In this document: one piece after another, positions 43,544 through 64,000 of the stretch
Layout of the letters: each line of letters starts with the position of its first letter
Position numbering within the stretch: the first letter of the stretch is position 1
Source: Kondoa subrosea
Lineage: Eukaryota
Reading direction: 5' to 3'
DNA: 64,000 nt
Assembly: GCA_039545335.1 (NCBI GenBank)
Contig: BCIN01000001.1
Location: forward strand, 3,599,136-3,663,135
Position numbers and translations under genes: made by a program
Notes under the pieces: model-generated
What the model saw: the letters and a program-made list of their open reading frames with translations, nothing else
Databases searched by the model: none
Told to the model about the DNA's origin: nothing

Positions 43544-44864
43544 TTAATCCAAATCCAACTCTTCTACGGAAGCGTTCTTTTTGGCCAAGTATATAGAGCA
43601 AACTTTCTTGTGCGACTCCCATTGCGAAGTGGCACATCAGACCGAGCAATAAGAAAGTAAAGAACAGCTTCCCGAAGCTTTGTATTGTCGATGAAGTTTG
43701 CCAGCATCGCGATCCACTTCTCCTTGCCCGCATAAAGCACAAACGATACATTCTCTTGTCGCTAGTCGAATGATCTTTTGATCCCTGCGTCGTTTACTCG
43801 ATTCGTACTGTATGTTGATTTTCGTTTTGAAACTCAAAGCACTAAACTTGCCCGATGCATCGAAAGTTGCACCTGCCTGGATCAGCATATGCTTAAAATT
43901 TGAACGTCGAATAGGGTCCGAAAAGACCTTGAAATCAAAAGGGAATCCCAAGAAGCACAGCGACTTTGAAAATGACCGGCTCTCAATCGTCTAGATGATC
44001 CAGTTCCCCACTCTTGTCGTTCGTTTTGACCTCTTCGGTACGTTTTTTTGAAGAGATTGAGAATAGGTAAGAGCTCAATCAGACCAAGCCCATACGCAGA
44101 GCTGCGATCTTGGCAGGCGAAAGATGTTCTTGATGCAGAGATACCATGACCCCGAGTGTCCTAATCTTCTGCCAGGTAGAAGCTAGACCAGAAGGTTCAT
44201 CCAGATTTAGTGCGAGAATCGACGCAATTTCCCGCTCAATGACAATGATCAACGTCGGAATGGTGCATTCTACAATGTAAAGAGGCAGCGATTTCAAATT
44301 GATATAGTTTCTGATGGCTTCGACTTTACAACAAATGACAGAGCTCGTTGGTGACCAGTAACGGAAGAACAGCGGTAGCTTACCTAATAAGTCTGAAATA
44401 GCATAGGCCTCATAGTATTCTTTCTCCTTCGCAGACATCTTTGAAGCATCTTTAAATTCCAGTTTCTTGTAGGTCCATGTACTTTCCGAAAGCACATGGA
44501 CTGCTTTGTCGTAGGCGGCCTTTGCCAAAGTGTGCAGGACTTGTGAAAAGATAGCTTGTGCTGCAGCCTCTTGGCCCAGCATAGCGAGATGTTACAGCTT
44601 GAGAGGTTCCAATTTCCCAATACTCTCTCTGCGATCAGCCAAAGCGCCAGACATTTCTAGCCATTCTTGTTCCTTGGCCCATTTCAAAGATTCCTCGCAC
44701 AGCATTCGAGATAGATGAGCAATATGCTCCCCATCCTTTCCTGAGTAGTGCATTACGCGTGCACCACGCCTAGGATCAGTGTGTCCGATATCGCGGTTTT
44801 GGAGCAAGCAATATTCTTGTTCCCAAGCACCATCCAGCTGATAGAAGTCTCTCAAATCTCTCAC
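43544..44864 (-). pseudogene. Disrupted MYND-type zinc-finger protein gene
   Basis: The C-terminus reads CALCG...ASGSCSLLSYCSV*CATSQWESHKKVC, a degenerate MYND finger. In-frame stops lie at 44592 (TAA), 43991 (TAG) and 43637 (TGA). No in-frame start ATG was found at the 5' end. Confidence 0.65.
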
Positions 44865-44887: not shown

Positions 44888-46466
44888 ATGAGTAAACCCC
44901 AATATGCTCAGTTGCCGACGAGCGAAGGCAGTTCAGCTAAGCTTCCAAGCCAAAATCCAGCAGAACCACCTCCGTCGAGCCGATTAGCAGTCTTCGCCTC
45001 TGTGACTTTCTATTTGGTTGCAGCACTTGTTGTGCGTCTCTTATACTGCGTTATTCAAGCTAGATCTGACGCCTGAGACGGTTTAGATGATAATGGTCAA
45101 TAGTAAGACATTGCATTCTCGAAACAACAAGCTTTCACTGACACTCTATCCTGTGCGCAGAATGGGTGCTGAATGCTGTTCGTAAGTGGGATAATCTTTT
45201 GCTATGCCAATAGCTGAACTCGCAACAGCTGCACCGCTCTTCTTTCTTCTGGTCCAGCTCGCTATAGCAGTGGTACTGCTGCATGCAGTTTCTTTCACGG
45301 GTGAGTATATTTCTATCAGATCCACGACCCTTTTCTGATCGCCATCGATAGGCTTCTTCAAAGTACCAAAACTCAGTCTTTCAGTCTCAAAAGGCTTGCT
45401 ACCTCTTATAGCGCTCAATTGCACCGGTTTGGCATTCAACACATATTGTTTGCAATACGTAGATGCGAGTTTCTACCAAGTTGGTCTATTCTTCATTCCC
45501 GGGCACAGTTTTTTGACCCAGAAACACTCAGATTGCCCGAGGACTTGTTTTACCCTTTACAACCTGTATCAGTTATTTCACACTAGGAACAACTCAATCC
45601 ACGCCTCTTCTGTCAGCAATCGGCATCATATGCTTGGGTTTCGTCGCGGGCGTATCAACAGAAAACCTGTCCGTCTCTGGTATTGGTATCATCTTGGGAG
45701 TGTGCTCCAGCATGACGACGGCTTTACATGCTATTACCGTCAAGAAGAGTCTGCCAGTCGTCAATGGTTCGGCTATGGATTTGGCTTACTATTCGAATCT
45801 ACTTTCCATGCTCGTCATGTTGCCGGCGGCGATCTTGGTAGAGACCAGTACTGTATTAGCTCTGTTTGCTGATGGAGGACCGGCATTGAGAACCTTCTGG
45901 ATCGGTGGGCTGACAACGGTAAGTCATTCTGGCCTTTGCCCTTTTTGCGAGAAGTAATGGTCATCAATGGCAATCTTGCAGGGCGTCTTTGGGTTCCTAA
46001 TATGTATTGCTGGCTTCATTTCCATCAAAGTTACCTCTCCAGTGTAAGCCTTGACAACCTGAACAGTCGTGTCCTTTATCTAAGATTCAATGTTTTTTCC
46101 GTGCGACCAGGACGCACATGGTTTCATCAGCTATAAGAGGAGTCTTTCAAACAGCACTGGGAGTATCAATCTTCAATGATGCGCTGACCACGTAAGTGAA
46201 AGTTCTCATTTTGCGCGTGAGACTGCTAAAAAAATGTAATCAGCGGTCGATTATCCGGTATCACGTTGATCATCTCAGGCAGCATATTCTATACTTGGTT
46301 GAAGGAACGAGAATTGCGGAAAAAGGAAGCAGCGGCCAAATCAGCAAATCAGCAATTAGCCGAAGAAACACAGCACGAGTCAACCTATGAAATGGATGAG
46401 CACGATGCTTTATCGGAAGCGGATGCTTTGATTGCCGCAGAGGAGAACAGGGAAAGGAAAGCGTAG
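44888..46466 (+). CDS. Golgi nucleotide-sugar transporter, GDP-fucose transporter (SLC35C1)-like
   Basis: SVTFYLVAALV|MIMVNKWVLN; FNTYCLQYVDASFYQ|IARGLVLPFT; GVCSSMTTALHAITVKKSLPVV; DLAYYSNLLS; SIKVTSPV|THMVSSAIRGV. Confidence 0.85.
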
Positions 46467-46604
46467 ATCGGTGCCGGGCGAATGACTGTAGATTCCCTTC
46501 TTGTTATGAAAATGCATATAGATCTAATGATCAATTAATCGCGCCTGAATAGCTTGTCTAATGATGCGTATGTACACTGTCTAACCTGTAATTACACGAT
46601 CCGA

Positions 46605-48427
46605 TTATCGTACAAGCGTTGCTGGATCAATACGAAGCGCTGAAGCCAGCCCAACTAAGTTCGATTCGTACAGTTGCAATCGAGCTACGGCCAGCGACTC
46701 TTCTGTTTTCGGCCATGAATATGAAGCCATGAGCGAATCTGCGCTGAAGCTGTGTGCTTCTTCTTCCAAGTAGGTCGTTCCATTTGCTCGAAGACGCTTG
46801 ATGGCTTCAATTGGCGAAACATCCTTTGGACTAGCCGCCGAAATCAGCGAGACGTCATGAGCTCAATTTACTGAAGCTCACTTTAGGACAGAGTTCTTTT
46901 CGTCCAGGAAAGGATAACCCGACCGGACTTCCTCAGTAATCAATACAGGAACCTGAGCAGCATTTAAGAAAAAGAATTATCCGCACAGGAGAGCTTATAC
47001 TGACATGAGCAATGATCGCAGCATATATAGCGGCCGATGCAGTGTTGTGAGTGTACTTTGGTGCAGAGTAAGGTGCTATGAGGACGTCGGCTGAATGCAG
47101 CTGTTCGTAGAGTGTAAGATAGCCAACTCCTTTGCGAGTTGCAACATTGGCCAGAGCGTCTGGCATTTCAAAGACGCCTCCACCAATAAATGCCTGTAAC
47201 AGCAACTCATCAGATGCTATCAAAGATTGAGCTGGAATTGTGACTTACAACCGTGAAGGGATCGTCGCATGTTGGATCCACTTCGAACGCCTCGTCATCT
47301 TTGCGCGGTTGGTAGCCCCAGAATTGCGGATCATCTGAGTGAAGTTAAGCTGCAGTGCGATCATACTAAGGCGAAACACAGACCTTCAATCTCCAGCTCG
47401 AGTTGTGGCAATAAATCATGATAGCCTGTAACAGCTTTGAGTAATTGCACTGTTCAACACATGTCAAGTCGCGCACCTTCCATCAAAGAAGCAGGAAGGC
47501 CATGAACAACCGCTTTTCGAATTCTGCGATGCTTGTTTGGATGCTTCTTCTTCTTGAGTGGATCGAGACCCATATCATACGGGAAGACTGGAGCGAAAAT
47601 TGCCATCTGTGGTATTTGGGCCAATCCTTCTTTCTTCCACAACGTTGTTGCTTTGTGCTGGACACTAAATTCGACGATGAGCTGTTTCAGAAGTCATTTA
47701 TAGCATGAGACATACTGCTCAGCCAAGGTTATAAAAGATATGGAATCTCTCTCCAGCCATGGAGTCAATGATTTCGACATTCGCTTCAGACTTGCCGTAT
47801 CGTGCAGTACGCAAACTATGGAGAATTTGGTCTGACGAGCGTTCCATATTCTCAGGTAGTGTTCCGTTGCAAAGGCGATCTCTTTGTCGCAGGAAGCTAA
47901 GAGGAGGTAGTCTATCCGTTCTGGCGAGGGATAGTCTGTTTTGAGATCCGACTCTAGGAGGATTACATCTTGAAGAAGATCTGAATCATAGATGCCTTCT
48001 AGCACTTGATCCAATCGATATCGAAAGGCACGTCCTTTGCGATAGACGTCATAGGTGAGCTGTCGTCGATCCGCCAATCCCTTTGCAGCGTAGATCAATG
48101 CGCCCAACACTTCATCATGCTGACCTGTTCGAAAAGCAAGCTTTACATAGGCCCTACTTTTACTCAGGTGAGCTGACCTTGATGTTCCGCTATCACTAAT
48201 CGAGGTTTCCGTAGATTTGTATCGCTTGAAAACACGGTATCCTCAAAATCCTCTACTAAGTCTGCCTTGAATCTTTTCGACAAGGTTGGTGATCCATTCT
48301 TGGTTGTCCAGAACACAGAAGCTGTGTGTGCAAGATACAGCGCAGTGAAAACAAGCACAAGTTTGGCTTGGTTCTTGCTAAGACCGAAAACTCGACTTGG
48401 AAGACGGAGCGGTCTGGCTGATTTCAT
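46605..48427 (-). CDS. Type II membrane protein, putative (GT-B-like) glycosyltransferase of unassigned family
   Basis: Short basic N-tail, one TM (LVLVFTALYLAHTASVFW) and a luminal domain. Motifs LVIAEHQG|QHDEVLGAL, IVCVLHD and YEQLHSADVLIAPY..ASAAIYAAIIAH|VPVL; the last resembles the GT-B nucleotide-binding helix region. Confidence 0.55.
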
Positions 48428-48773
48428 GATCCTTCCGGGCAGGCGAGAATGGCTGAAAGTTTGCAAGCGAAAGGAGGACAGCGCGAGCGGTTAAGAATCA
48501 TCGAGCGTTGAACGGGTTCCTGAGAGGGATAGACATTGCATCGTGGATCTTGTCTCAGTTGCAGCTTTATTTGCCGAACGCTCATTATAGCGCCCTTGAT
48601 CGAGACAGTACTCTTGTCAGCTAAAGTATTCCCCAGAGCTGTTCCTTCGAGTTTGGCCGGTTCGAATATTGTACAGGAGTAATCGAATTGAACAGGGCTC
48701 TACTCTGCAGCTCGACAGAGAGCACAGGTCAGGCTAGATAGTGCTCCATTTCACCTTAGAAGCTGCGACCATC

Positions 48774-51691
48774 ATGTCGCAACGAAGGAAGCCATATCGC
48801 AAAATCTCAGACTACTTTGGACTACAGCAAATAATCAAAGATGATGCGGCTGCAACTGAAGAGAAGGAAGGACTGGAACCAGTTACAGAAGGGACTGAAG
48901 TTGCAGTGCAACCTGCTGCAGGTCGGACGACTTTACATCGATCGCGTACAAAAGCCCGAAGACTCTTCAGCTTCAGCATACTTGTCTTTCTTGTTGCAAC
49001 GCCTCTAGTCTACCTTCTGCATGAGCGATTCGAAGTTATCGAAAATGATCAGTATTTGGAAGCTCGCTCAGGCAAAGCGCAATATGACTCTTTAACGGTG
49101 GAACATCTACATCCTTTACCTGCTCGACCTGTGTTTACTATAGACTCGCGGAAGCTGCTCAAATACTCAAAGAACTATATCTCGCATCTATCGACAAATG
49201 TCAGGCATCAAGCGAAACGGGCTTTAGGTCGACATCCTATCGAAAAGAAGATAGAAGAGCACCAGCAAGCCTGGAGAGCTAAGATAGAGCGACAGAGTAA
49301 ATCAGTGGACGAAGCTAGATTGGAGTATACTCGAAGGTAAGTTTCATTAATTTCTCGCATCAGGAAACCAATATCTGCAACATCTAGATACAAGCGCGAG
49401 CCACCATCTGGCTTTGACGAGTGGTTTGAATACGCAAAGGGTACGCTTTGATCGACTTGTTAAGCACTGCGCTCATGTCTAGGGACAGAGAAAGGATTTC
49501 TCCTCCCGGATGAATTCGATAGCTTGATGAGCCAATTGGAACCGTTCCTGAAGATACCTTCCAAACAGCTTCGTAGAGTCACTGAGCAGGTGGGAAACCT
49601 ACCGTGAGTTTGCCTCTAGTATGTGTTCGATCTTCTAACCTTCTTTGCCATGCAGATCGTTCAGTTTGATTTCGGCTGTAAATGGGGAAATGTCAATGAC
49701 GCCCGAATTTGGCAAGACTATTGGACAGAGTCATCGAGCTCTAGGCCTCTTTGGCATCATGCAAAATTTTATCACTAAACCAGGAATGCGAGACATGAGT
49801 TTCGCCATCAACGCAAATGCTGAGCCTCGAGTCATCGTACCCTATTCGCATCAAATGGCTCTGAAGAGAATAGCTGATTCTGGTCAGTCTTCTTCTCTTC
49901 AGAGAATGTATGACTCTACTTCATGTCAAACGCAGGGTCGGATTACACGATTAAAGATCCTGACTGGCCAAGTGAAACGTGGTTAGGCGAAAGCAGTACT
50001 TGGGATGCCTACCTAGCAAGTTGTCCACCAGGATCGTCCGTTCGCAAGCAAATGTCAACCTACAACAGTTTCGAGATCCCTCTTCAGCGGGAGACATTTG
50101 CCGGACCTAAATCAGGAGCGATCGAACGAATGAATGAGATGAATGATATGGTCGAGATCGATGATTATGGCTACTTCGAGAATGACACAAGAGTTTATTT
50201 TCCACCGCTGCAAAGTCCTCCTTCGTCTATATTGTCAATGTCAGCTGTGACGGATAGCGAAGCTTTCCAGTTCGAAGATACTATGCATCCAAACAAACGC
50301 CTTGGTCCTACAGCTTTCTGCAATAACAAACAAGCTGCTGAAGCTCAAGGCATCTTCTTTGGCGATTATCGCAATCTACAAGGTTGGTATCCCGTGTTCA
50401 GTCCAGCGACCATGCCAGGCTTTGCAGATATAATGATTCCCACTCGTAAGCTATCAGCGTTTGGCCTAGATCGTGTCTAAGACAATTATTAGATTATTAT
50501 GCCGAGAAGATGAGAGAAACCAGATCCAGAAGATTGAATGAACCAGTCACTATGACCAAAGAAGGTGACTGGGAATCGATTGGAGGTGGAATGAAGAACT
50601 CGAAGAAGTGGAAAGAGCTTTCGGTCGCTTGGTGGAGAAGGTCAGATAAAATCTATTGGCGAGGTTCTCCTACCGGAGGTCAGTCGCGAGAAGGGACTGC
50701 GATCACGAGCTCAATCTTCCGAACACAGGCGGAAGTTCACCTCCAGGACATCAGCTGAAATGGCCTAGGACTCGCTTGGTCCAGATGTACTCCGGCATGC
50801 ATCCAGATGTGGATGAAAGCATGATCGTCCCTTCCCTTTCCGGAGACAGCTTAGAGCAACGGATAGACTCTCGAATCGGACTGAACAATGCTTCGATGGA
50901 CATCGCTTTGGTCTCTTTGGTTGGTTGCGGTGTTCCTGAAGCCTGCAAATCGATACGATATGGCGACTATCGCTTTGCCAATAGATCGCCAATGTCTGTC
51001 TACAAGATGTATAAGATCTTGCTTGATGTAGATGGTGTGTTGCGCTTCATGCATATTCGCCTTTAGTGCTGATTGCTTGTTTAGGTATGGGATTCAGTTC
51101 AAGATTTTTGTACTTGTTCGGTATCGGCAGTGCGGTGTAAGTAGTCCCTGGACATCCGAAAAGCAAAGGCTGATTTTTGGCTTGCAGCATGAAAAACACC
51201 GTCTTTATAGAGTAATTTGTTGTATCATCTGTTTTGCTCTTGAAGCTGATTTCTATTCAGATATTATACAGATTGGGTATGTGGCTCAATACTTCGACGG
51301 AAACTGGCTGACTTTGTTGCGATAGATTGAACCTTGGGTGCATTATATTCCTGTCAGTTTTGAGTTCAAGGTAGGGCATTCATCAGCGCCGTGATCCATC
51401 ACTGACCAGGCTGCTCAGGAATTGCGAAATCTTTGGGCTTTCTTCTTGGGGCGAACATTGAGATCAGAACAACCGCATGTACACAATTCTCAAGACCGTG
51501 GTGACGAAGCTCTGCGCAAGATAGCTCGTCAAGGTGACGAGTGGAGGAATACTGTAGGGCGATTAGAAGACATGGACGTTTATACCTATCGGGTGAGGAA
51601 TTTTGGCCTTGGGAAATTCATAACTGATATTTTCTTGTTCACCCACCCACAGCTAATGCTCGAATGGTCTAGAGCTATGAATAGAGAATAG
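48774..51691 (+). CDS. Glycosyltransferase family 90 (CAP10/CXT1-like), paralog a
   Basis: TM anchor; HPIEKKI..QSKSVDEARLEYTRR|YKREPPSGFDEWF; PDEFD..LEPF; INANAEPRV; PVFSPATMPGFADIMIP; IYWRGSPTGG; YKILLDVDG; PWVHYIPV; YTYR|LMLEWSR. Confidence 0.9.
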
Positions 51692-51961
51692 AGCAGTGCA
51701 GGCACAAAAGAATGGCGTGGGCTCTTTCGCGCTTGTTTGTATAGATGTAACAAGTATGATTATTCATTTGTGCTATGCTGCCGCATGTCGGAATGCTCTG
51801 TTCTCTGAATCCTGCTGCGAAGGATGCTCAACCCGACTTGTCTTGCTCGCGCCCTGGAATTAGCGATATTTGCAAAGATCTGCAAGACATCATAGACTTG
51901 TGCCTGCCCATGATAGAGAATCTGAGTTGCGGCTTGTTTGTATCCACTGAACATCATCTAG

Positions 51962-53862
51962 ATGGCTGCCAACAACTCTAAACTGCTACGGAAGATTGTT
52001 CTGGGTGTCGTCTGCCTGTTTCTGGCTTCTCCGCTCTTTCATCGAATTCGTGATGCCTTCAGCTCAGATTCCAAGTCAGAAGCTCCCGCAGACCTCGTCA
52101 AGCCTCTCGCTTCCATCAGCAGACCTCTTGTCTCAGCCGCTCGAAAGCCTGTAGATGCTTTCGACGAAAATGTTTTCCATAGAGATGCCTCATCTCTCTC
52201 GCCCATTAGTCAAGTACAGACGCAACCTGAACACATTACCTTGGATCTCAATATGCCACAGTCTGTTATCAGAGGACATGCGCCAGGCTTCTCTTGCATA
52301 GACAATGTCTACTTTCATCAAGGTGTAAGTCTTGGTCTCGCTTCTCAACGTCCAGCCAGAGATTAATGGCTTGAATCAGATCATGTACCTTGTTAGTGAT
52401 GATCCCGGGCAATTTCCACCTCTCAGTCACATCGAGCGAAGTAAAGCACTGCTGCGTACAATTTGTTCACTTGCTCATCCCTGAATCTTTAGGGATAGAA
52501 GCTTTCGATAATGCTACCGAACCAGACAAGATTGCAAGTGTGACTCCAGCAGAAGCGCTCTCGATCTTCAGTCAAGCAGTAAACAATCAGCAGGGAGTCA
52601 GTATGATCTGGCGGGATTGGTTAAGTGAGCTTTACGCTCTTCCTTCATCGATTACCCAAAAGCTGAATTGCTACTTTCAGCTCATCATTTTGCCCACTCA
52701 ACTCTTGAAGCTTGGCTAGGCACATGGAAGGTTTACTCCGCTGCAATGGATCCTGAGGGCAAAGGCGGCCTAGAAATGCCTAGAAGACTGATCCAGATCA
52801 TGAAAGATCCGTATGACTGGAGAGATCGCTTCAAGATGAACCCTTGGTTTATGAAGGTTTGCTGTCCAAACAAACCGCTTGAGAATAGTGTTTTTGACTC
52901 TTGTACAGCACGCCTTCCCAAACATGAATCTGGAATACGATATAGATTGGGAAGAGCGTGCTTCCTTTGGCACCACTGATTTGTATCGTAGAATAGTATA
53001 CATCAATCGAAGGGCAGCCAAACATTCGATCGAAAATCATCGTGAGTTAAGGTCTTCTGTAGTTACATATACTGGTACCTGAGTAGCTTTACAGTCGCCA
53101 ACAAGTTTACCGGAGGTGTATTGAAACTTCCCTCCTCCGAAAACTGGTTTCAGCCTGTCAGAGATTCACTTTTCGCATCAATTCCAGCAAGTCCAGCACC
53201 TGCACCTACCAAGCCTGTAATCACGTATATCTCTAGACAAGGGGCGGAGCATCGAGTACTTCGGCAAACGGATCATGATGCGCTAGTTGCGGCTCTGGAA
53301 GAGTTGAAGTCAGATTTCGAAGTCCATATCGAGCAATTGGAAAATTTGGAAATGGCAGATCAGCTCCATCTGATGGCAAGAACTAATGTATGTATAGCTC
53401 TATCTGCTTGCTTGCACTTCACTCACGGTCGAATGTAGATCTTGATCGGTTTGCATGGCAATGGAATGACTCACTTGCTTTGGCTGCCACCCAAGTCGTT
53501 GGTCATTGAAATTCTGTTCCCTGGCTGTTGGGCAAGAGACTTCGTACTACCTGCAAGAGGCCTCGGGCACTCACATCGAGCTGTATGGGACAACACTATT
53601 CTCGATGATGATGTGGTGCGTTCTTAGTCTCTTTCTTCTCTGTTATCTTCCTCTGATGTGCCTTGAAGCAATCGCCGACGATGGTCTTTCCCAGAGGATC
53701 TCACGGAAATAACATTCCGGTCACTGCTGCACCTGTAAGCTTCCGTACGTTCAACTCACAGCTGCAGTACTCAAAGAAAAAGAACAGATCATTACCATAA
53801 TCAAAGCCTGGCAAGCAGGCGAGCCACTTCCTGCACATAACACAGTAGTCGATACATTATAG
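51962..53862 (+). CDS. Glycosyltransferase family 61, paralog a
   Basis: TM anchor; HAPGFSCIDNVYF; HHFAHSTLE; PVITYISRQ..RVLRQTDHDALVAALEEL; QLHLMARTN|ILIGLHGNGMTHLLWLPP. Confidence 0.85.
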
Positions 53863-54187
53863 AACACTTCTTTGCTACAAGAACGGTATTTAGACAAGCA
53901 CTTGTACATAGACATTTACACAATTAGAGGCATGTTCAATAGGGGCATAATTTTGTATGTTTCCTGCACCCTATTCAGTATGAGCACGGATTGTTGCGAG
54001 CCCTGTGAAGAACCTATGGAGAGTTCTGGCAGACCATTGTCTATAGGCCAAGCCGCCAGCGTCAAGTTCTTTGATCCCATCAGTTCGGGAAAATGTAGGC
54101 CGAATACTGGTACCGCTGACCTCGACACAAGGGCATCCAATCACTGTCCGGCTCGGGGTATGAATGAGAGTCGAGCCAGGGTGTGTT

Positions 54188-57118
54188 TCAAAGCTCGTTG
54201 ATGTCGTCGCGAGTCCAAAGACGAGACCATTCCAGCATGAGCTAGAGCCCAAAATGAAGTTTTGACCTCGTGTGATATCAGCTGGGCTCACTCTATAGGT
54301 ATATAGCTCCATGTCAACTCTTCGACCTGCAGATGCTTTCCACTGGTCTCCCTGCTCGGCTATGCGCTTGAGTTGTTTCTGTCCATGATCATACTGAATG
54401 TTGCGATTGGTGAGCCTGCCGCCAGCAAAATACGCCCAGATGTTCCAGATTTCCTGCACACATACTGATGAGACGTATCGACCTGGCGACTGATCTTCAC
54501 ATACATTGTATTCATCGCTTAGCGGAACATAGTGCACCCATGGTGTAAGCTGTCCCGATCGATGAGCACTTCTTGTCAGTCCCAATTGCAGGTCAACTTA
54601 CCCAATCGGAATAGTACCTTGAATATGTCGTCAAAACACGAGACCCAAGATTGCAGGTATATACTCACTCGACGAAAATAGTGTTTTTCACGCTGCAGCG
54701 CGAATGATATGAACGGGTGTCCTGTCATTCTGAGTCACGACTTACACCACATTTCCTAGGCCGAGTAAATAAAGAAAGCGAGAAGAGAAGCCCATACCAT
54801 CGACATCGATAAGCATCTTGAACATGCGACGAACTCTGAACATTATCAGCTGGAGACAAGTACGTACAAAATCACTGACGACGGAGCATCTTTTGGCACT
54901 AGACGATAATCTCCGTACCGCAGCGCTTTGCAAGTTTCGGCAATACCACAGCCCCACAGCGAAAAAAATCCAGTGTCCATTGCTGCAGCATTCAGATCGG
55001 TGCGGCGCATATCAAACTGTTCCGCACGTGAACCGCTTGAGTCTGGAACAACTATTGTTTCCGACGCTCGGTTCTGCAGGCCGCTTGTTTTCTGCATTAA
55101 GCGAGGTCTTGCAAATCGCAACTGATGACCAGGAGGGGCGCTCCCGCCTATATTTCTGGGCTCAGAAGTCTTTTGAGAGTATTTTCAACAAAGAAAACCC
55201 CTACCGCCTGTTGGGGATCCACGCCAATACATCATGTCCAGCTTTGATTCCCAGCTTACGTTCAGCTTTGGCCAAGTATTCGGTTCAAGGCCCGTTCTGG
55301 TCCCGTTATATGACTTGAAAAATCCAGTGTTGTCTCTCTCAATAGGTTGATTTAGGTATTTGGCATCATTATAGTAGTCTTCTGTGAGAAAATGACTCGG
55401 AATCATGATGTCGCTGTACCCAGGTAGGGAAGCAGGGCTGAAGATGGGATAGAGGCCAGGTAGGGAACGAAAATCTGAATAGAAGATGCCCTGACCCTTC
55501 GCTGAATCGGGTCTGTGACAGTATTCATCGGCCTTGAGACGATGCGCGGCGTGCATTGTTTGCTCGAACTGCATGCTTTCTTTTCGTCCGGGCGACAAGT
55601 CTGGAGGTGGTTGGTGCAGCGGTATTTCTGCAGGAAAATCTTGCTGGAAGGAAGGATGGTTGGCTCGAGGAGGAAGAGAATGGAGAGTTGAATCTGCCAT
55701 AAGTTCGCTTTTGCCTAGCCTATGATGAGCAGGTGTCGTGTTTCCTTCAACTACAATTTGCATAGCATCAAAGCTGCTGAATTCGCGTCTTGCAGCACTC
55801 TCAGGCGGACAACTCGCTACATAGGCGTTCCATGAAGTTTCTGGTGGTTGCCAATCTATGGACGGCCATACTGGGTCATCGCTCGAGCTATCTGTACGTA
55901 GAGTTCTGTCAGATGGAATTGTGATAATCACCTCACGCGTACAAAGTCGATTTGCGTCAGATTTCTGATTCCAAGGTTGTATTGAGCGAGGTTCTGCATT
56001 ATCATTGATTGCAAAGGCCAGATTAGGCGCTATACCAGGCAAGCCTACATACAAACGTTTAGCGCCGCTAGCTCCTGCTAGACCGAAAGTCCTAACCAGC
56101 AAGATCGAACATCACGTCAATTATGCCAGCTGCACGCGACGACAGACTAGCTTCCGTATCCAGGAGCACGTCGCCGTCCTGAATCTCGACCAAAGCGAAA
56201 GAACTTGACGACTTTCTCAGCCAGTCCTGTGCAAGTCTCCAAACAACACAGTACCTCAAATTCCCGACAAAGTAAGTCCTTCTCTGTAGCTCTTCGCCTG
56301 ACATAGACCAGAACGGCTCGAGCTGAGACATCATCGTATCAAACTCGTCAATGTAGAGAAACTCGTTTTCTGCTGTGGCATTAGCTTTGTTGGCGAAAAG
56401 CAAGGGAGAGTATCAACCTTGAGCAGCCTCAAACCACTCTTCGAAGCCAAGAGGAGGTGATCGCTTGTATCTAGGGCAATGTCTTGAGCGATAGATTGTT
56501 ATCTTTTCTATGCGGAATCAGGCACCTTCGCTGGTACTCTGATACGGCTGCATCAAGAGTATTACTCTGACGCTTCAGTTTCTCTATGTGTGCAAGCTGG
56601 TTCTCAGCAATCAGCTTGTCTATCGGATGCTGCCACGGTACAGCGCTTTTCGCTGAAAGCATGAGATCGCCAAGGGACGCAATTTTCTCGAATATGTATC
56701 GTCGTAGACGCTGCGAGTCGCCAGACAATCGATTTAGCAGATCATCAGCTTGGATGTGAGGTTTTGGTCGTGGATGTAAAGCCGTAACGCGAAGAGCAGC
56801 AAATTGAGACACTTTCAGCTCTTGATATTCGTCTTGGCCATAGCGTATGGCAGAAGAAGACACATCTGAAAAGGAATGCAAGAAGTGGAAAGCTACAACA
56901 GCCAGTAACAACAGGCCAAGGAGTAATCTCGGGTAGAGTCTGCCCAACTTTGCGCTGCGCTGCTTCTTTTCGTCCTCATCGTCGGAGTCCACACCTTCGG
57001 TTCGCTTGACAGATTCTGCCGCATGACTTCTGTCCTGCTGTAGCGAAGCCTCGAACTGGTCTGTCGAATAGAAGTCTGATGTTTTGCGATAACCTCTCCT
57101 CTGCAAGGCAGCTTGCAT
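54188..57118 (-). CDS. Glycosyltransferase family 90 (CAP10/CXT1-like), paralog b
   Basis: HPIDKLI..QSNTLDAAVSEYQRR|YKRSPPLGFEEWF; IDEFD..LEPFW; INDNAEPR; PIFSPASLPGYSDIMIP; YWRGSPTGG; LIDVDGMGFSSRF; PWVHYVP; |LMLEWSRL. Confidence 0.9.
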
Positions 57119-57290
57119 CAACCTCTTCTTGCCAGCACGCCCAGTTGTCCGCCCCGGGTTTGTGTTGCCCTGTTTGGACGGAGCAAGACAGACCTTAAAT
57201 TTCGGTGCCTTTTTTTAAAATGATTCAGAATCATGGACGGCGGCTGCTGAGTTCTGCTTGTCTCTTGCCCCTTCTGCTTCAGCATTCGTG

Positions 57291-59209
57291 ATGGCTGCGA
57301 ATAACTCTAAACTCCTGCGTAAAGTCGTTCTGGGTGTCGCTTGCTTGTTTCTGGCCTCTCCGCTCTTTCATCGAGTCCGAGATGCCATCAGCCCAAGCTT
57401 GTACTCCGAATCAGTATCGAATCTGTCGACAACCCTCTCTTCCATCAGTAGACCTATTGCTTCAGCTGTGCGAAGGCCTGCAGACAGCTTCGACGAGAAT
57501 GTGTTCAATAGAGATGCATCCGTCCTTTCGCCTATAAGTCAAGTGGAAGCGCAACCACAACATATCAAACTGGATCTCAATATGCCCGAGTCTATAATCA
57601 GAGCGCATTCTCCTGGATTCACTTGTATAGATAATGCCTACTTTCACAAGGGAGCAAGTCAGAATCTGAGACTGTATCTTGGTACACGCTGATATGATGA
57701 GCAGATTCTTTACCTCGTCTCGGACGATCCCAGCTCGTATCCACCATTAGATCACATTGAACGAAGTCTGTGTTGAAATCTCGCGCACTCGCAGATTGTC
57801 TTGCTGACACTGGCCCATCTTTATCAGGAATAGAAGCTCTCGACACTGAAGGCGAGCCATTGAAGATTGCAACAGTAACTCGAGCTCAAGCTTTGAAGAT
57901 CTTCAAGCCGATAGCAAATAATCTACAAGGCCTGAGCGTGATATGGCGGGATTGGTTCAGTGCGGACAATTTGCAATGTCGTCTTTCTGCTTACTTATCA
58001 ACCTAACTCTATAGCTGGACATTTTGCTCATTTCGTCATGGAAGCTTGGCTTGGCACCTGGAAGATCTACACGGCAGCCATAGATCCACAAGGCAAAGGT
58101 GGTCTTGAAATGCCAAGAAGGTTGATCCATGTCGTTCAGGGACCTTTCGCATGGAGAGATAAGCCTTCGATGAATCCGTGGTTTGCGAAGGTGCTTTGCA
58201 GAAGTCCATTGATATTGATCGCTATTTAAAACGTGTATTTCAGCACGCTTTCCCGAATATGGTTCAAGAATATGACGTCGATTGGGAAGAACGCAAGCAA
58301 TTCGGAATGACTGATCTCTATCGAAGGATAGTCTACACGAATCGTAGAGCTGGGAAACATGCGATAGAGAATCACCGTTTGTCCATCTTCAGTATTCATC
58401 AGCATACATTGCTTAGTGGCGCTGCTCGATAGTGGCCAACAAATTCACTGGAGCAGTGCTGAAGATTCCAACAGCTGATAATTGGTTCCAACCTGTCAGA
58501 GATTCACTATTCTCCTCATTGCCTCCCCCAGCTCTACCGCCAACTTCCAAAACAGTTGTTACGTATATCTCCAGACAGAACGCAAAGAGAAGAAAGATTA
58601 TACCAGCGCAACACGACAAATTGGTTGCTGCACTGAAAGCTTTGGAGCCAGAATATGAAGTGCATATTGTAGAATTTGAATTCATGGAGCCGCACGAGCA
58701 AATACATTTAGCTGCGAGAACAAATGTGAGTGTAGCCTTGCAATTGAGCAGGAATACAATCGCTAATCATCTATTCTATAAGGTGCTCGTCAGTCTGCAT
58801 GGCAACGGTTTGAGTCACATGCTTTGGCTACCTCCGAAATCGCTAGTTATAGAGCTGCTCTTTCCTGGAGCGTGGGCAAGAGATTTTGCCATCCCAGCCA
58901 CTGGTCTAGGTCATCAGCATCGAGCTATCTGGAACGACAAAGTATTGGACGACGCAGAGGTACGCAGTTCCGTCGACATCATCGATGAAAGATCTAGAAC
59001 TTCCGATTGCAGATGTCCCCAGCTATGATCTTCCCTGACGGATCGCATGGCAACAAGATACCAGTGAATGCCGCGCCGGTAAGTTTGCTTATAAGTTTCG
59101 GCTGTGAGCGCTTTTTCATGCTTGTCAATAGGTAATTACCATGATCAAGGCATTTGCAGCTGGAAATCCGTTGCCCAAACATGGAGCTGTGTTTCACAAA
59201 ATAGTGTAG
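57291..59209 (+). CDS. Glycosyltransferase family 61, paralog b
   Basis: N-terminus nearly identical to paralog a (MAANNSKLLRK); GHFAHFVME; VVTYISRQ; LVSLHGNGLSHMLWLPP. Exon layout matches paralog a where compared. Confidence 0.85.
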
Positions 59210-59287
59210 GTGTTAGTTGGGCTTTGTACAGAAAGAGACTATGAACATTTGGTATGCATTGTCACATTTGGATATCTGCACTAGCAT

Positions 59288-61504
59288 CTATTGCCCCTCT
59301 ACGTAGTCCCACGGATCTTCTTTACTCCTAGACGCGAAGCGCGCGTACTCTAATAGCAAGCGGAAAGTGTACGCTTGCAAATCTTGATATCGGTCATACT
59401 TCTTGGACCATTCATAGGCGTTTTTGGCGATCTTTGCTGCCTCTCCGACATGTGAATGATAGCCCTGCAGATCACCTTCGAAATAGGCGAGAATATCGAA
59501 TACATCGGAATAGTCCACTTTGAGCGGGACATAGCTACAGGCGCACCAAAAGTAAGCCAAATTTTAGACAACAAAATCTGAGAGACATACTGATACCATG
59601 GCTGTACTCGATCAGTCCACCACTCTGGGAAGATCGTACTCTTGAACATGACCGAATTTGATCGCATGAGCTGCTCGACAATGAACTTTTTTGGTGCCTA
59701 TGTAAGCCAGAAGACTTACACGATGAAATCGACCTGACCAAGCGTTTCCCTGCCAATAAATATTAGTCAAGATGTCTCAAATTTCAATCTGAGGCTGACA
59801 TCAACATCGAGTATGTAGCGATATTCAGCTTCTTGATCAGGACCAACTCTCGTAGCCAAGGGAAAGAGCTTCGTCGCAAGAGCTATCGTGCCATCCTTCT
59901 CTCCATCTGGATTCTTGGTTAATTTAGTGAAACCTACATCTAGGTAGTGCTCCGATAGACTTCGCTGTGAGCAGTTCTGAAGTCCAACAAGATCACCCAA
60001 GTCGGCTGTGTGTATATGTCGGTAGCCATAAGTATCAGCACCCACTGCATACTGGTCAATCATACTTTGATGAGGTCAATCTAAATAGACCTTACAAGAA
60101 ACAATACGACTTCGTTGAGAATGCCTCCATCTTGTTGTCTTCGAAAATCTCTGACCAGTAGATGAACCTCGCCAGAGCAGACGAGAGTTGTTCTTTGCCT
60201 TGAAATCTTTATAGCTGGGACTTGGTAGGAAGAACTGTTCTTCAGGTGCAAGCAGGAAGTCACTATGCAATTTCGACTTAGAGAAGGTGAATTTTGGTTC
60301 GAGAGGACCAGGAGTTGGCCCATTCCTTGACAAAACGTCAGTCTATGAAGACAAGTTGCTTTAGCGGAACTTGCCATGCGAAGAAACCATGCTGATCGAA
60401 GAGTTCAGGATCTTTGATATTGTTATCAGCGGGTTGTGATGACCTGTACACTGTTACATACGCAAGCAAGGATCCATGGCTTGATGATGATCGTGTATCA
60501 AGCTAGACCCAGTCGATTGCAGACCATACGCTAAACCTGACCATTCCCGCCGGGCAGGCGAGTCTTCTGAGCACATATAGCGCCAGGGAGGATATCCATC
60601 GACTCTCCTTCTGACAAATTGGTAGTTCTCGATGACTGAGACGAATGTTCAGCTGACTGACCAAGGACCACTTTTGCAAGCTTACACTCGGAGTTCTTCA
60701 CTGCTACATTCGCAGATCTGACGTATTCACCATCTATCACTACAGCAGGACCATCCGAAGTAGAAATGAACAGGTCAAGATCGGGTAGCAAGTCAACGAA
60801 ATCTGAAAGCAGGTCCGCAAAGCCTCTCGCTCGATCTCCGTCTTTTTTGGGTCCAGTAAGTGTCAGCTGGCCATCTTTGACATGTGCAATGAAGGATTGA
60901 GGATTCGGCGTATTGAGAAGATCTTGAATTGCCTTCTGTGCATCAGCAATCGGCATTACAAGACTGGGCTTCAATAAGCTCACGAAGATACAGAAGACTT
61001 GGCTCACTCACAAAGGTGTTAGATCCTTGAAGATCTGGTCGAATTCGTCAGGAAGTTGTACATTCTTTTCTTGAGCCCATTTGTACCTGCGCTCAACAAA
61101 TTAGGGAAGATAAGATACACGAGTCAGTCTCACCATCGGTCGAAGCCTCGAGGTGGTGATCTGCCGTATCGCTCTCTGTACCGCTGCGACCCTTCGTCTA
61201 AGGTACTTGACTGACTGTCAACTTTAGCTTTCCATTGCTGAGCGGCTTCTCTGATCAAAGCAGGTATAGGGTGCAGCGATCCAGGCACATAATAAACCAA
61301 TCCAGCCTGACTTTCTAGATCTGGTTTGGTACCAAGTCCGAACTGTTCAACAGAGAGAGATATATGTGAAGACTTTCTTGATTGAAGCAAGTTAACGCAT
61401 ACAATCGCACTGTGATCTTGATAGAAATGCAATCCCACAGCGACAAGCCCAACGAAGAGGAAAAAACGCTTCACTCGAAATCTTGAAGCCAATCTAGAAG
61501 ACAT
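59288..61504 (-). CDS. Glycosyltransferase family 90 (CAP10/CXT1-like), paralog c
   Basis: HPIPALIREA..QSSTLDEGSQRYRERYGRSPPRGFDRW; LPDLDLFISTSDGP; LLWRGSSTG; YRYILDVD|GNAWSGRF; FKSTIFPEWWTDRVQPW; YVPLKVDYSD; YTFRLLLEYAR. The start codon is uncertain. Confidence 0.9.
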
Positions 61505-62122: not shown

Positions 62123-64000
62123 ATGTCTTATCGTGTAGTTGGCTTGGTATGGCTGCTCCTATGTTCAATACAATCTGCGAGAGCTGGTAAAGCGACGAAT
62201 CAGCTCGCGATAACGCAAATTCATCCGATAGCTGTTGGCAGAATGGATGTGAGCGCTTTGTCCTATAAACATATTACCCAGCTGATGAAGTCATTAAGGC
62301 CATCGTCTCACCTGGAACAATCTCTAATCATAATCATTACTTCCTTGGAGCTAACAACCCATCACCAAATTCAAATTATGCATCTTTGCGCCAAGCGACG
62401 TGTACAAGTACTGGCTTAGGTCAAGCAGATTTGAGCTCGTATTGGCTGCCTTCGGTCTATCATCGGGCGCCAGGAGGAACAGGATACACGCTTCTCAAGT
62501 CACAGTATAACACTGTATACTACAATTGGAATCAGTTTGTCTCAACGCCATTCATTGCCTTAAGAAAGCTCTCTCATGTTCAGAAATAGAGATGGAAAAG
62601 ACCAACCGTTTCCTGATGACTTTCAAATGCTGGTTGGCAATCCCAAATCCAACGGAACGTGTCGTAATGGTACACCGACAGGGTATGCAATGTATCTCAT
62701 GATCCAAGCTACTCGCAGCTGAATTGAGGTCCTTCCTCTCAGTGCCGAATGTGCCAAATTTAGTCATTACTGGTACTGCGGCGGTCAACCTTTGTCGGTT
62801 GATCCACCGAGAGCTGCTTGCGATAGTCTTGGTGTTCATCTGACGTTCCCTTCTTGTGAGTCGGAATACAATACTTCAAGGAGCCGTCATCTCATAAATG
62901 ATCGATCAGGTTGGGATGGAATACCGTTTACTGCGGAAACTCAAGATGAACATCTTTTCTACGCCCAGGGTGATCGAAGAAGCCTAACTTGTGCAAACGG
63001 GTTAGCCAGCGTCATGATGATAGCTGGACTAGGCTGATGTTACAGCAGATTGATTCGATTGCCGCAAATCATGTATTCATGGCAATTTGATACCAAGGGA
63101 ATAGCGCCAAATGGGCCAGACGAAGACACGTGGACTCTTTCCATGGGTGAAGGAGGATTCGGTGAGCAGTCTGGCAAGTCTGCCACGTTTCCTAAGCTTA
63201 CTTGCAATGCACCAGGCTTACATGCGGACTTTATCAATGGTGCGATTGAACGCTTGTCAGCTTGATGACGTCTCACTTGCGCTCACAGGCTGGGATCGCA
63301 ATGTATTGCAAGCGACTATTGACCAGTGCCACGATCTAGACGAAAACAGTCCATTATTTTGCCCTCCGTTGGCTTCCTACTATGACAAAGCGGCAGGAGC
63401 TGCGTGTCGCTTTGCTGGTGAACTACCTGCCGAAGATGTTGGTGCAGCTGGTGCGAGATTGGCTACTTTACCAGGTCAAGATGGAGACACTTGCATTCCA
63501 AACATGGCACCGATGGTGGGAATGACAACTGACTCCCTGCCATTACCTATCGCTGCACCGGGTTCCTGTGATAATACGCCTCCGCCAAGCTCAAGCTCTG
63601 TCTTGCCTACTTCATCTGAATATCCATCGTCTAGTTTACCTCCAATCTCGTCCATCCCTTCTGCATCAGAAGTGCCTTCCAGCTCCAACTCCGGCGACTC
63701 AACTGTCCCAACATCTTCGCCTACATCTGATTCTGGCGACAATGCAGACCCAGATCCTGAATCTGACCCATTCCCTCAACAACAAGCTTCCTTCACTTCT
63801 TCTTCGGCCTCTGATTCAGCCTCTTCCTCAGCTTCTCTGTCAAGCGGATCTTCAATTCCCATATCGACCACCACACAAGCCGTTGGAGCAGTTCCGACAG
63901 ATACCAGCTTCAGCTCAACACAATTGACAACGGACGCTTCTGGACCTCTGCCGACTACTCCTCTTGTCACAGAAGCAGCTGGTCCACTACCAGTACCATC
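62123..64000 (+). CDS. Secreted DUF1996 domain protein with Ser/Thr/Pro-rich tail, 3'-truncated
   Basis: Signal peptide; RMD|AIVSPG..HNH; DLSSYWLPSVY; FPDDFQMLVG; LTFPSC|WDG; GLHADFING|WDRNVLQATIDQC; then an S/T/P-rich open frame running to the window end. Confidence 0.85.

Follow-up and report, generated by a model that had tools for sequence, protein, structure and literature searches.

A run of eleven adjacent genes in Kondoa subrosea suggests a Golgi module for fucose/xylose decoration of a secreted or surface glycan

The enzymes acting on basidiomycete surface glycans mostly lack an assigned activity, and the capsule genes of Cryptococcus are generally dispersed. On contig C1 of Kondoa subrosea, 11 adjacent genes (G1 to G11) span 25.4 kb, and 10 of them are glycan-related: one importer of sugar donors into the Golgi and nine enzymes that add or modify sugars, which together represent eight independent lineages in an all-against-all comparison. 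Why do these genes lie side by side, and could they serve one glycan? The genes are listed below, with positions in the window (the whole 64-kb stretch of DNA analyzed) or, where marked C1, on the contig.

G1, 44888..46466, + strand: SLC35C1-like GDP-sugar, probably GDP-fucose, Golgi transporter; 377 aa, 9 exons
G2, 46605..48427, - strand: type II membrane protein, assigned to a GT-B (GT4-like) family of fungi without a name; 486 aa, 8 exons
G3, 48774..51691, + strand: GT90, paralogue of G5; 769 aa, 13 exons
G4, 51962..53862, + strand: GT61, paralogue of G6; 491 aa, 9 exons
G5, 54188..57118, - strand: GT90; 772 aa, 13 exons
G6, 57291..59209, + strand: GT61, head-to-head with G5 (172 bp); 492 aa, 9 exons
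G7, 59288..61504, - strand: GT90 of a subfamily other than that of G3/G5; 588 aa, 10 exons
G8, 62123..64000, with its stop 235 bp beyond the window end, + strand: DUF1996 protein, secreted, whose tail is long and rich in Ser/Thr/Pro; ~602 aa
G9, C1:3665303-3663618, - strand: SGNH-like by its motifs; 432 aa
G10, C1:3667615-3665555, - strand: O-fucosyltransferase-like by a sub-threshold PF10250 match and motifs; 518 aa, 11 exons
G11, C1:3667719-3669393, + strand: GT77-like by a sub-threshold PF03407 match; 434 aa

Spliced models of G1 to G7, built by coordinates, gave seven uninterrupted and intact reading frames, with introns of 44 to 67 nt that are canonical GT-AG except for two GC-AG. The gaps from G1 to G7 measure 138, 346, 270, 325, 172, and 78 bp and leave no room for another gene. 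These models and gaps confirmed the initial annotation of seven consecutive genes in this order with nothing unrelated between them, but the limits that it had drawn were incomplete, as four further genes continue the run rightward: G8 straddles the window end, and G9, G10, and G11 lie outside. The cluster contains four head-to-head pairs (gaps of 346, 172, 618, and 103 bp). The families first proposed also hold, through PF03151 for G1, PF04577 for G4 and G6, and a genome-built GT90 profile for G3, G5, and G7.

For the importer, PF03151 matches one G1 exon (E 4e-8), and an intron-less homologue, P0034, shares 70% identity with G1 over 373 aa and agrees with its junctions. P0034 also finds GDP-mannose transporters of solved structure (E 3e-9) and, aligned to 9s35 and 5oge, carries YYSN at the YYNN/FYNN position and an A-x-R motif at GALNK; both motifs are common to G1 and P0034, placing G1 among TPT/EamA-type carriers. 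A PDB sequence search with one G1 exon returned chance matches only. Named relatives carry the database label GDP-fucose transporter, so that G1 is, judging from sequence and these labels, probably a GDP-sugar-type carrier of GDP-fucose; GDP-mannose may be an alternative cargo. A recent origin of G1 as a copy of the paralogue on C4 was rejected (sister relation, p-AU 0.0025), making G1 an old extra paralogue, and its grouping with P0035 and P0036 was neither rejected nor supported (p-AU 0.33). A second transporter paralogue lies ~90 kb further on, between pyruvyltransferase-like and GT14 genes, in a three-gene glycan group.

The GT90 motifs WRG and DxDG are present in G3, G5, and G7, together with an N-terminal membrane anchor. 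Pfam searches on single exons gave weak fragment matches for G7 (E 0.002) and none for G3 and G5; a profile built from eight other GT90 models of the same genome, picked for their likeness to G3/G5/G7, matched G7 at E 4e-159, G3 at E 3e-97, and G5 at E 2e-89. One GT90 of this genome matches PF05686 (E 3.5e-15) and POGLUT structures (E 2e-9), and G7 finds a Pfam-confirmed GT90 by tblastn at E 3e-61; neither Cxt1 nor Cap10 surfaced among the sequences retrieved. G3 and G5 share 39% identity over 796 columns, whereas G7 is 40% identical to a gene at C5:33k against 29% locally to G3/G5. In the tree, G7 and G3/G5 fall in separate GT90 clades, each with nearer relatives elsewhere in the genome, which holds 13 GT90 genes, at least 10 of them outside the cluster.

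Both GT61 matches of the genome lie within the cluster. G6 exceeds the PF04577 cut-off of 27 bits (42.4 bits, E 1e-10) and weakly matches EOGT (E 0.017), while G4 (E 2e-5) scores 25.5 bits on one exon frame and 37.9 with neighboring frames. The two are 67% identical, their first eight exons are equal in size, and a dN of 0.24 against a dS of 2.8 indicates purifying selection. Longer relatives of the G6 frame were absent among 1301 protein candidates, a result of little weight.

G2, initially annotated as an unassigned type II glycosyltransferase-like gene, could be placed through its homologue KAL7005680.1 (27% identity over 422 aa, E 2e-39). The predicted fold of this homologue, rather than of G2 itself, is a two-Rossmann GT-B (pLDDT 80.8; Foldseek E 1e-9) that superimposes on BshA (Z 21.2, rmsd 4.0, 334 aligned) and PimA (Z 20.9). 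By this model, G2 is a member of an unnamed fungal family, single-copy in the genome, whose homologue is predicted to fold as a GT4-like GT-B. In GT4-like GT-B enzymes, the donor phosphate is bound by basic residues that follow the first strand of the C-terminal domain. In the family alignment, Q284, R291, and R292 are invariant in all 4 full-length or near-full-length homologues, and G2 has His, Met, and Glu instead, so that the donor-phosphate basic residues of GT4-like enzymes, including the Arg-Arg pair, are absent from G2. A PDB sequence search with the family profile gave chance matches only, and a protein atlas search with one G2 exon gave uninformative viral and bacterial matches.

Beyond G7, G8 (PF09362, E 1e-15) is head-to-head with G7 and is the sole member of the run that is neither an enzyme nor of a glycan family. 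The assignments of G9, G10, and G11 come from sub-threshold profile matches or motifs; shuffle counts for the motif patterns (0/20000) were not taken as evidence, the patterns having been fitted after the sequences were seen. G10, 2.4 to 4.5 kb past the window end, is the genome's sole PF10250 match (E 0.007, 18 bits against a cut-off of 31.5, scored on gene fragments). It has an Arg, an Asp, and an STF equivalent to R294, D371, and S387-T388-F389 of POFUT2 as given in part of PMC10481521, placed by motif rather than by alignment to POFUT2, with an Asp-to-Ser spacing of 16 (16 in POFUT2) and an Arg-to-Asp spacing of 80 (77 in POFUT2). PDB sequence searches with two G10 exons gave chance matches only. 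G11 is one of two PF03407 matches in the genome (E 0.052, 16.4 bits against a cut-off of 22); its DxD and later motifs are ordered as in an unambiguous GT77 gene at C1:516k (blastp between both, E 0.025), and a single-sequence fold of its exon 1 was set aside (pLDDT 47). Passages of PMC2824669 give the SGNH/PC-esterase hallmarks as a GDS Ser, a Trp/His after strand 3, and DxxH. G9 has G-S-S for G-D-S, the Trp, and E-x-x-H for D-x-x-H; it has no Pfam match, the PF13839 search being empty with its control silent too. G9 may be of the Cas3/Cap64 kind. A single fused G9-G10 gene was rejected, since the two have separate starts, anchors, and stops and lie 251 bp from each other.

Could this run be a chance neighborhood enlarged by tandem duplication? 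G3/G5 and G4/G6 are indeed duplicates, the GT90 family is large in this genome, and the arrangement is absent in distant relatives, but duplication explains just those two pairs, since eight independent lineages are left once they are collapsed. Even at 300 glycan genes among 7500 (gene numbers assumed), fewer than 1e-6 such runs would be expected in a genome, and a low-sensitivity survey of other GT90 loci found another Golgi transferase family nearby in 1 of 8 and three in 0 of 8. Chance with duplication is thus hardly credible, and the initial argument that co-location goes beyond tandem duplication is strengthened by G7 and G3/G5 having closer relatives elsewhere. The same annotation had held that scattered orthologues would speak against a module, and scattering is what we found in distant basidiomycetes, the loci that the comparison covered: among 80 metagenome loci with a G1 homologue, not one carried relatives of G2-G7 or G9-G11, 28 of these loci being at least 4 kb long, 16 having at least 3 kb downstream, and the genomic ones all being distant (at most 53%). 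A literature search found no description of such a fungal cluster. Recent horizontal transfer was rejected, each enzyme gene having 7 to 12 introns and GC and GC3 being genome-like. A shared promoter word, AGACAAG, was not accepted: the best 7-mer (4 of 5 regions, p ~0.075), it occurred in 3 of 9 independent test windows, one within coding sequence, against ~1 expected, and in 0 of 2 added regions.

A mixed assemblage, in which spare Golgi-enzyme paralogues gather and diversify to serve a number of unrelated glycans rather than one product, deserves more attention. The breadth of the enzyme set, the occurrence of G1, GT90, and GT77 paralogues elsewhere, the apparent alteration of G2, and smaller pairings in the genome (one GT90 adjoining a CAP59-type gene; two GT90 pairs) all fit it. 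We nevertheless consider it rather unlikely, because the donor importer shares this run with the genome's only fucosyltransferase-like (PF10250) match, no gene is broken, and accumulation leaves unexplained the meeting of eight unrelated lineages acting in one compartment.

The donor pathways bear on what the cluster would do. Genes for GDP-mannose dehydratase (GMD; E 7e-98) and UDP-xylose synthase (UXS; E 2.5e-28), as well as three CAP59-type backbone genes, lie in the genome outside the cluster, which has neither a UDP-xylose carrier nor a backbone synthase and would thus be a decoration module. Characterized GT90 and GT61 enzymes use UDP-sugars, so that within the seven genes first annotated the donors do not match a G1 of the GDP-sugar type. 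The suggestion of a fucose- or xylose-containing product agrees with the fucose and xylose donor pathways, both at least partly present; the transferase that matches G1 lies outside those seven genes, the O-fucosyltransferase-like G10 being the likely customer of G1. Genome searches for GT10, GT37, and PC-esterase gave no match, their controls being equally silent.

Altogether, the co-location of an importer and nine enzymes, with genes that are intact and products that are membrane-anchored, suggests one fucose/xylose-decorating locus, and we propose with moderate confidence that the cluster is a lineage-restricted Golgi module adding fucose/xylose side chains to one secreted or surface glycan, most likely a mannan-based polysaccharide or surface-protein O-glycans. 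G1 would import GDP-fucose into the Golgi and G10 would transfer the fucose, while G3, G5, and G7 and G4 and G6 would add xylose, with UDP-xylose supplied via an unlinked carrier. G11 would add one further sugar, G9 would set O-acetylation, making O-acetyl groups on the glycan probable, and G2 could be a retaining transferase with altered donor binding or a non-catalytic partner. Head-to-head pairs may share promoters, and assembly from separate lineages would have come first, followed by local duplication of G3/G5 and G4/G6.

The target could instead be G8 and similar proteins, substrate and enzymes being joined in one locus. As the only non-enzyme of the run, secreted, with a long Ser/Thr tail and head-to-head with G7, G8 would suit this role, and animal O-FucT, GT90 (POGLUT), and GT61 (EOGT) members modify proteins; this reading appears improbable, however, as capsule polysaccharide is the substrate of the fungal GT90s Cxt1 and Cxt2, and glycolipid a further one of Cxt1, according to passages of PMC12493134. 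The reported role of Cxt1 in the synthesis of glycosyl-inositol-phosphoceramide (same source, in part) raises a glycolipid target, either this lipid or a secreted one, in place of a polysaccharide, which we judge very unlikely, since the run contains no lipid-handling gene, exporter, or regulator and nine enzymes are many for a single head group.

Returning to the decoration module, a bolder and tentative extension, doubtful as a whole, would make it a eukaryotic "glycotype locus," that is, a co-regulated operon-like cassette of recruited spare paralogues specifying a fucose-xylose-acetyl side chain on the surface glycan of this yeast, varying among species like bacterial capsule loci, with the transporter-pyruvyltransferase-GT14 group as a second cassette of the same design. 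If this is true, functions could be assigned for the first time to fungal GT61, GT77-like, and glycan-directed O-FucT enzymes and to the unnamed GT-B family. The cluster itself lets the roles of four poorly known families be argued from the company they keep, and few deletions would be needed to follow this up. Golgi-lumen glycosylation would be seen to form a gene cluster in a fungus, complete with a donor importer, and fungal gene clusters would then not be confined to secondary metabolism or galactosaminogalactan-type (GAG) synthesis.

Among known systems, the GT90s and the SGNH-like protein recall the capsule (GXM/GXMGal) machinery of Cryptococcus neoformans as partly described, with Cxt1/Cxt2, Cap10 (GT90), Cap59 (GT69), and the Cas3 family. 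In that yeast, mannan is decorated in the Golgi with xylose and O-acetyl groups (parts of PMC12493134 and PMC10889740), and a 2025 paper states in one passage that, before Cgm1, Cxt1/Cxt2 were the sole transferases definitively linked to capsule synthesis (PMC12493134). The Kondoa genes differ in being contiguous, in including GT61, GT77-like, O-FucT-like, and unnamed GT-B members and a GDP-sugar carrier, and in excluding the backbone genes. Fucose-containing GXM-like polymers have been predicted for Tremella and Cyphobasidium (in part of PMC8355462). G1 belongs to or resembles the SLC35C1/TCDB 2.A.7.16-type fungal GDP-fucose transporters, as does G10 the PF10250 O-FucT subfamilies; passages of PMC10481521 describe fungal fucose transporters as lacking experimental verification and list fungal O-FucT neighborhoods of housekeeping or secondary-metabolism kind, not a transporter-plus-transferase cluster. 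The GAG cluster of Aspergillus fumigatus (uge3, agd3, and three more) is likewise a contiguous set of fungal genes for an extracellular glycan, called operon-like and unusual in fungi, and such clusters bring together a glycosyltransferase, an epimerase, an extracellular deacetylase, and a hydrolase or spherulin-like gene (passages of PMC4817252). No family in common with its five genes was found, and Pfam searches of the 11 cluster genes gave no epimerase, deacetylase, or hydrolase match, so that the GAG-type combination is absent here; the Kondoa run has instead Golgi-lumen type II enzymes and a nucleotide-sugar importer, without a polymer synthase. In combining donor supply, transferases, and a putative acetylation enzyme, the cluster resembles bacterial capsule and O-antigen loci. 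In those loci, donor-supply genes and an acetylation enzyme likewise accompany several transferases, whereas the Kondoa genes are eukaryotic and intron-rich, occupy both strands, and have genome-like GC and no sign of recent transfer. Placing such genes side by side is more usual among bacteria than among fungi.

The initial annotation had described seven consecutive glycan-related genes at positions 44888 to 61504 of the window (itself G000:C1:3599136-3663135 of an 18.9-Mb, 27-contig fungal genome): a GDP-fucose-type transporter (G1), an unassigned type II glycosyltransferase-like gene (G2), three GT90 genes (G3, G5, and G7), and two GT61 genes (G4 and G6). Coordinate-based gene models upheld all seven, with every frame open and short introns. 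An N-terminal hydrophobic segment is present in each of G2 to G7, and the exon junctions of G1 agree with intron-less homologues. GC donors occur in G6 intron 1 (window 57654-57704, plus strand) and G7 intron 5 (window 60326-60374, minus strand); the G4 intron equivalent to the former has a GT donor. G4 and G6 are duplicates (67% identical), as are G3 and G5 (39%), whereas the similarity of G7 to G3/G5 is local only (29%). A quick tree built from 11 GT90 models places G3/G5 with a gene at C5:556k and G7, a long branch, with one at C5:33k. Elsewhere in the window, none of the 74 frames examined with Pfam gave a glycosyltransferase match. Reading rightward beyond G7, four more intact genes follow:

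G8, secreted DUF1996 protein
C1:3665303-3663618, minus strand, G9, SGNH-like by motifs alone
C1:3667615-3665555, minus strand, G10, O-fucosyltransferase-like by PF10250 match and motifs
C1:3667719-3669393, plus strand, G11, GT77-like by PF03407 match
C1:3663618-3669393 (L128:619-6394), G9 to G11 together, just past the right end of the window

The cluster is real and larger than first reported, with 11 genes over 25,371 bp. G10 and G11 stand head-to-head, 103 bp apart. The gene beyond G11 appears chromatin-related by eye, and we take the left neighbor to be MYND-finger-like; the in-frame TGA inside its Cys pattern (window 43637-43639, minus strand) may come from an unmodelled intron or a sequencing error, or the gene may be a pseudogene.

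With duplicates collapsed, eight glycan-related lineages occupy nine slots, and the expected count of such runs is 7e-11 to 4e-7 per genome, assuming 100 to 300 glycan genes among 7500. The clustering is well beyond chance, and a fortuitous assembly is scarcely credible. As a control, about 20 kb around eight other GT90 loci (10 genes) was scanned exon-wise with Pfam; another Golgi family (CAP59-type) adjoined one of the eight and a cytosolic GT41 gene lay near one further locus, in a control that is insensitive since the same scan misses G2, G3, G5, G9, and G11. The GT90 gene most closely related to G3/G5 directly adjoins a CAP59-type GT69 gene (C5 about 555-559 kb, L126/L127). Two more GT90 pairs lie at C5 33-39 kb and C5 826-831 kb, and the genome holds at least 13 GT90 genes.

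Characterized GT90 and GT61 enzymes use UDP-sugar donors, whereas G1 is related to GDP-sugar carriers, and this mismatch led us to seek fucosyltransferases genome-wide. The sole PF10250 match (E 0.007) falls in G10, 3 kb beyond the right end of the window, and the POFUT2 Arg, Asp, and Ser-Thr-Phe residues named in PMC10481521 are all present there with matching spacing. G11 accounts for one of the two PF03407 matches in the genome (E 0.052), and G9 was assigned by motifs only, as defined for SGNH-like proteins in PMC2824669. All three assignments fall under profile cut-offs, partly because exons were scored singly. Plant GT77 enzymes have arabinosyl- and xylosyltransferase roles (PMC3797821), and PMC5225481 reports no PF04577 gene in its fungal sample.

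The largest G2 exon, searched against 1.84 billion representatives, gave 17 matches; P0003 and P0010 proved to be unrelated repeats and were set aside. Named homologues come from Cystobasidiomycetes, Cyphobasidiales, and Psilocybe, and none carries a Pfam or NCBIfam family; the Atlas lists unnamed clusters, one of 63 members, mostly basidiomycete, at 0.98 and one of 158, mostly ascomycete, at 0.97. The glycosyltransferase-like label first given to G2 is correct, since the predicted fold of its homologue KAL7005680.1 (pLDDT 80.8) matches GT4-type GT-B enzymes (Z 21.2 for BshA and 20.9 for PimA; Foldseek E 1e-9). G2 itself departs from its family at one site:

Window about 47477-47515, minus strand, end of G2 exon 3, His, Met, and Glu in place of the invariant Gln and Arg-Arg

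Retaining GT-B enzymes bind the donor phosphates at this site, and G2 may use a different donor or be an inactive pseudo-enzyme.

The closest named relatives of G1, by one exon, are from Microbotryomycetes (50-55%). In a 37-row tree, G1, one paralogue of the same genome, and nine environmental proteins form a separate clade (100/99) adjoining that of Microbotryomycetes. These placements suggest that the genome belongs to a lineage of Pucciniomycotina. Sisterhood of G1 and the contig C4 copy was rejected (p-AU 0.0025), so G1 predates the split from its environmental relatives. Of 82 G1 relatives confirmed by scanning metagenomes, 80 were kept (28 loci of at least 4 kb; 16 with at least 3 kb on the G2 side), and tblastn and HMM searches found no relative of G2-G7 or G9-G11 near them; as a detection control, other GT90 genes of the genome were found, and the HMM caught only one of two divergent GT90 controls. 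Four close G1 matches (67-74%) sit on contigs of 1.4-1.5 kb with no flanks. The lack of cluster neighbors at the 80 loci, of which all genomic ones belong to distant relatives, argues that the cluster is not ancient in basidiomycetes.

Two of the four G1-type transporter copies lie amid housekeeping genes. The most diverged (31% to G1, C1:3.76 Mb) and a pyruvyltransferase-like gene form a head-to-head pair, and a GT14 gene follows the transporter:

C1 about 3.758-3.763 Mb (L172:2677-5589 and L121), second glycan group, PF04230 gene, transporter, and GT14 (PF02485)

The PF04230 gene is about 114 bp from the transporter, with a duplicate about 6 kb upstream. Two of the four copies are thus in glycan groups, the enzymes of which are entirely different. 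No common promoter word was significant in the cluster; AGACAAG, likewise not significant, occurs upstream of G2/G3, G4, G5/G6, and G7 and in the joint promoter of the second group (L172 about 2690). At least four pyruvyltransferase-like (polysaccharide) genes (C1:3752k, C1:3758k, C6:516k, and C11:50k) make pyruvylated glycans worth seeking in this basidiomycete. The C4 transporter paralogue has an alginate-lyase-like gene (PF05426; C4 about 1.502 Mb, L114:9230-9700) about 9 kb away. At C11 about 52.7-54.7 kb (L169:728-2661), not far from RPB2 and a pyruvyltransferase-like gene, a pair of oppositely oriented homeodomain genes resembles a mating-type HD1/HD2 pair.

GDP-mannose 4,6-dehydratase, UDP-xylose synthase, and UDP-glucose epimerase are present in the genome, unlinked to the cluster; these donor genes are permissive rather than specific, since xylosyl and fucosyl donors are predicted in most basidiomycetes (PMC8092308). 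Contigs C3 and C5 carry three CAP59-type genes between them, and the cluster thus supplies decoration, not backbone. Altogether, we somewhat favor one Golgi decoration module that would act on a surface glycan bearing fucose and xylose, probably O-acetylated, every enzymatic step being proposed from family membership. That the 11 genes form a mixed glyco-island is rather unlikely. The secreted G8 product as substrate of the cluster enzymes is an improbable alternative to this module, and a glycolipid target is more improbable still.

A full-text literature search, mostly outside subscription journals and covering titles, abstract openings, and selected passages, found no description of such a cluster, and the supplementary neighborhood tables of PMC10481521 could bear on its novelty. 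The cluster, whose function we infer from its gene families, is apparently undescribed. Its nearest parallel in chemistry is with the Cryptococcus capsule enzymes (PMC12493134, PMC10889740, and PMC8355462), and its nearest parallel in layout is with the Aspergillus GAG cluster (PMC4817252).
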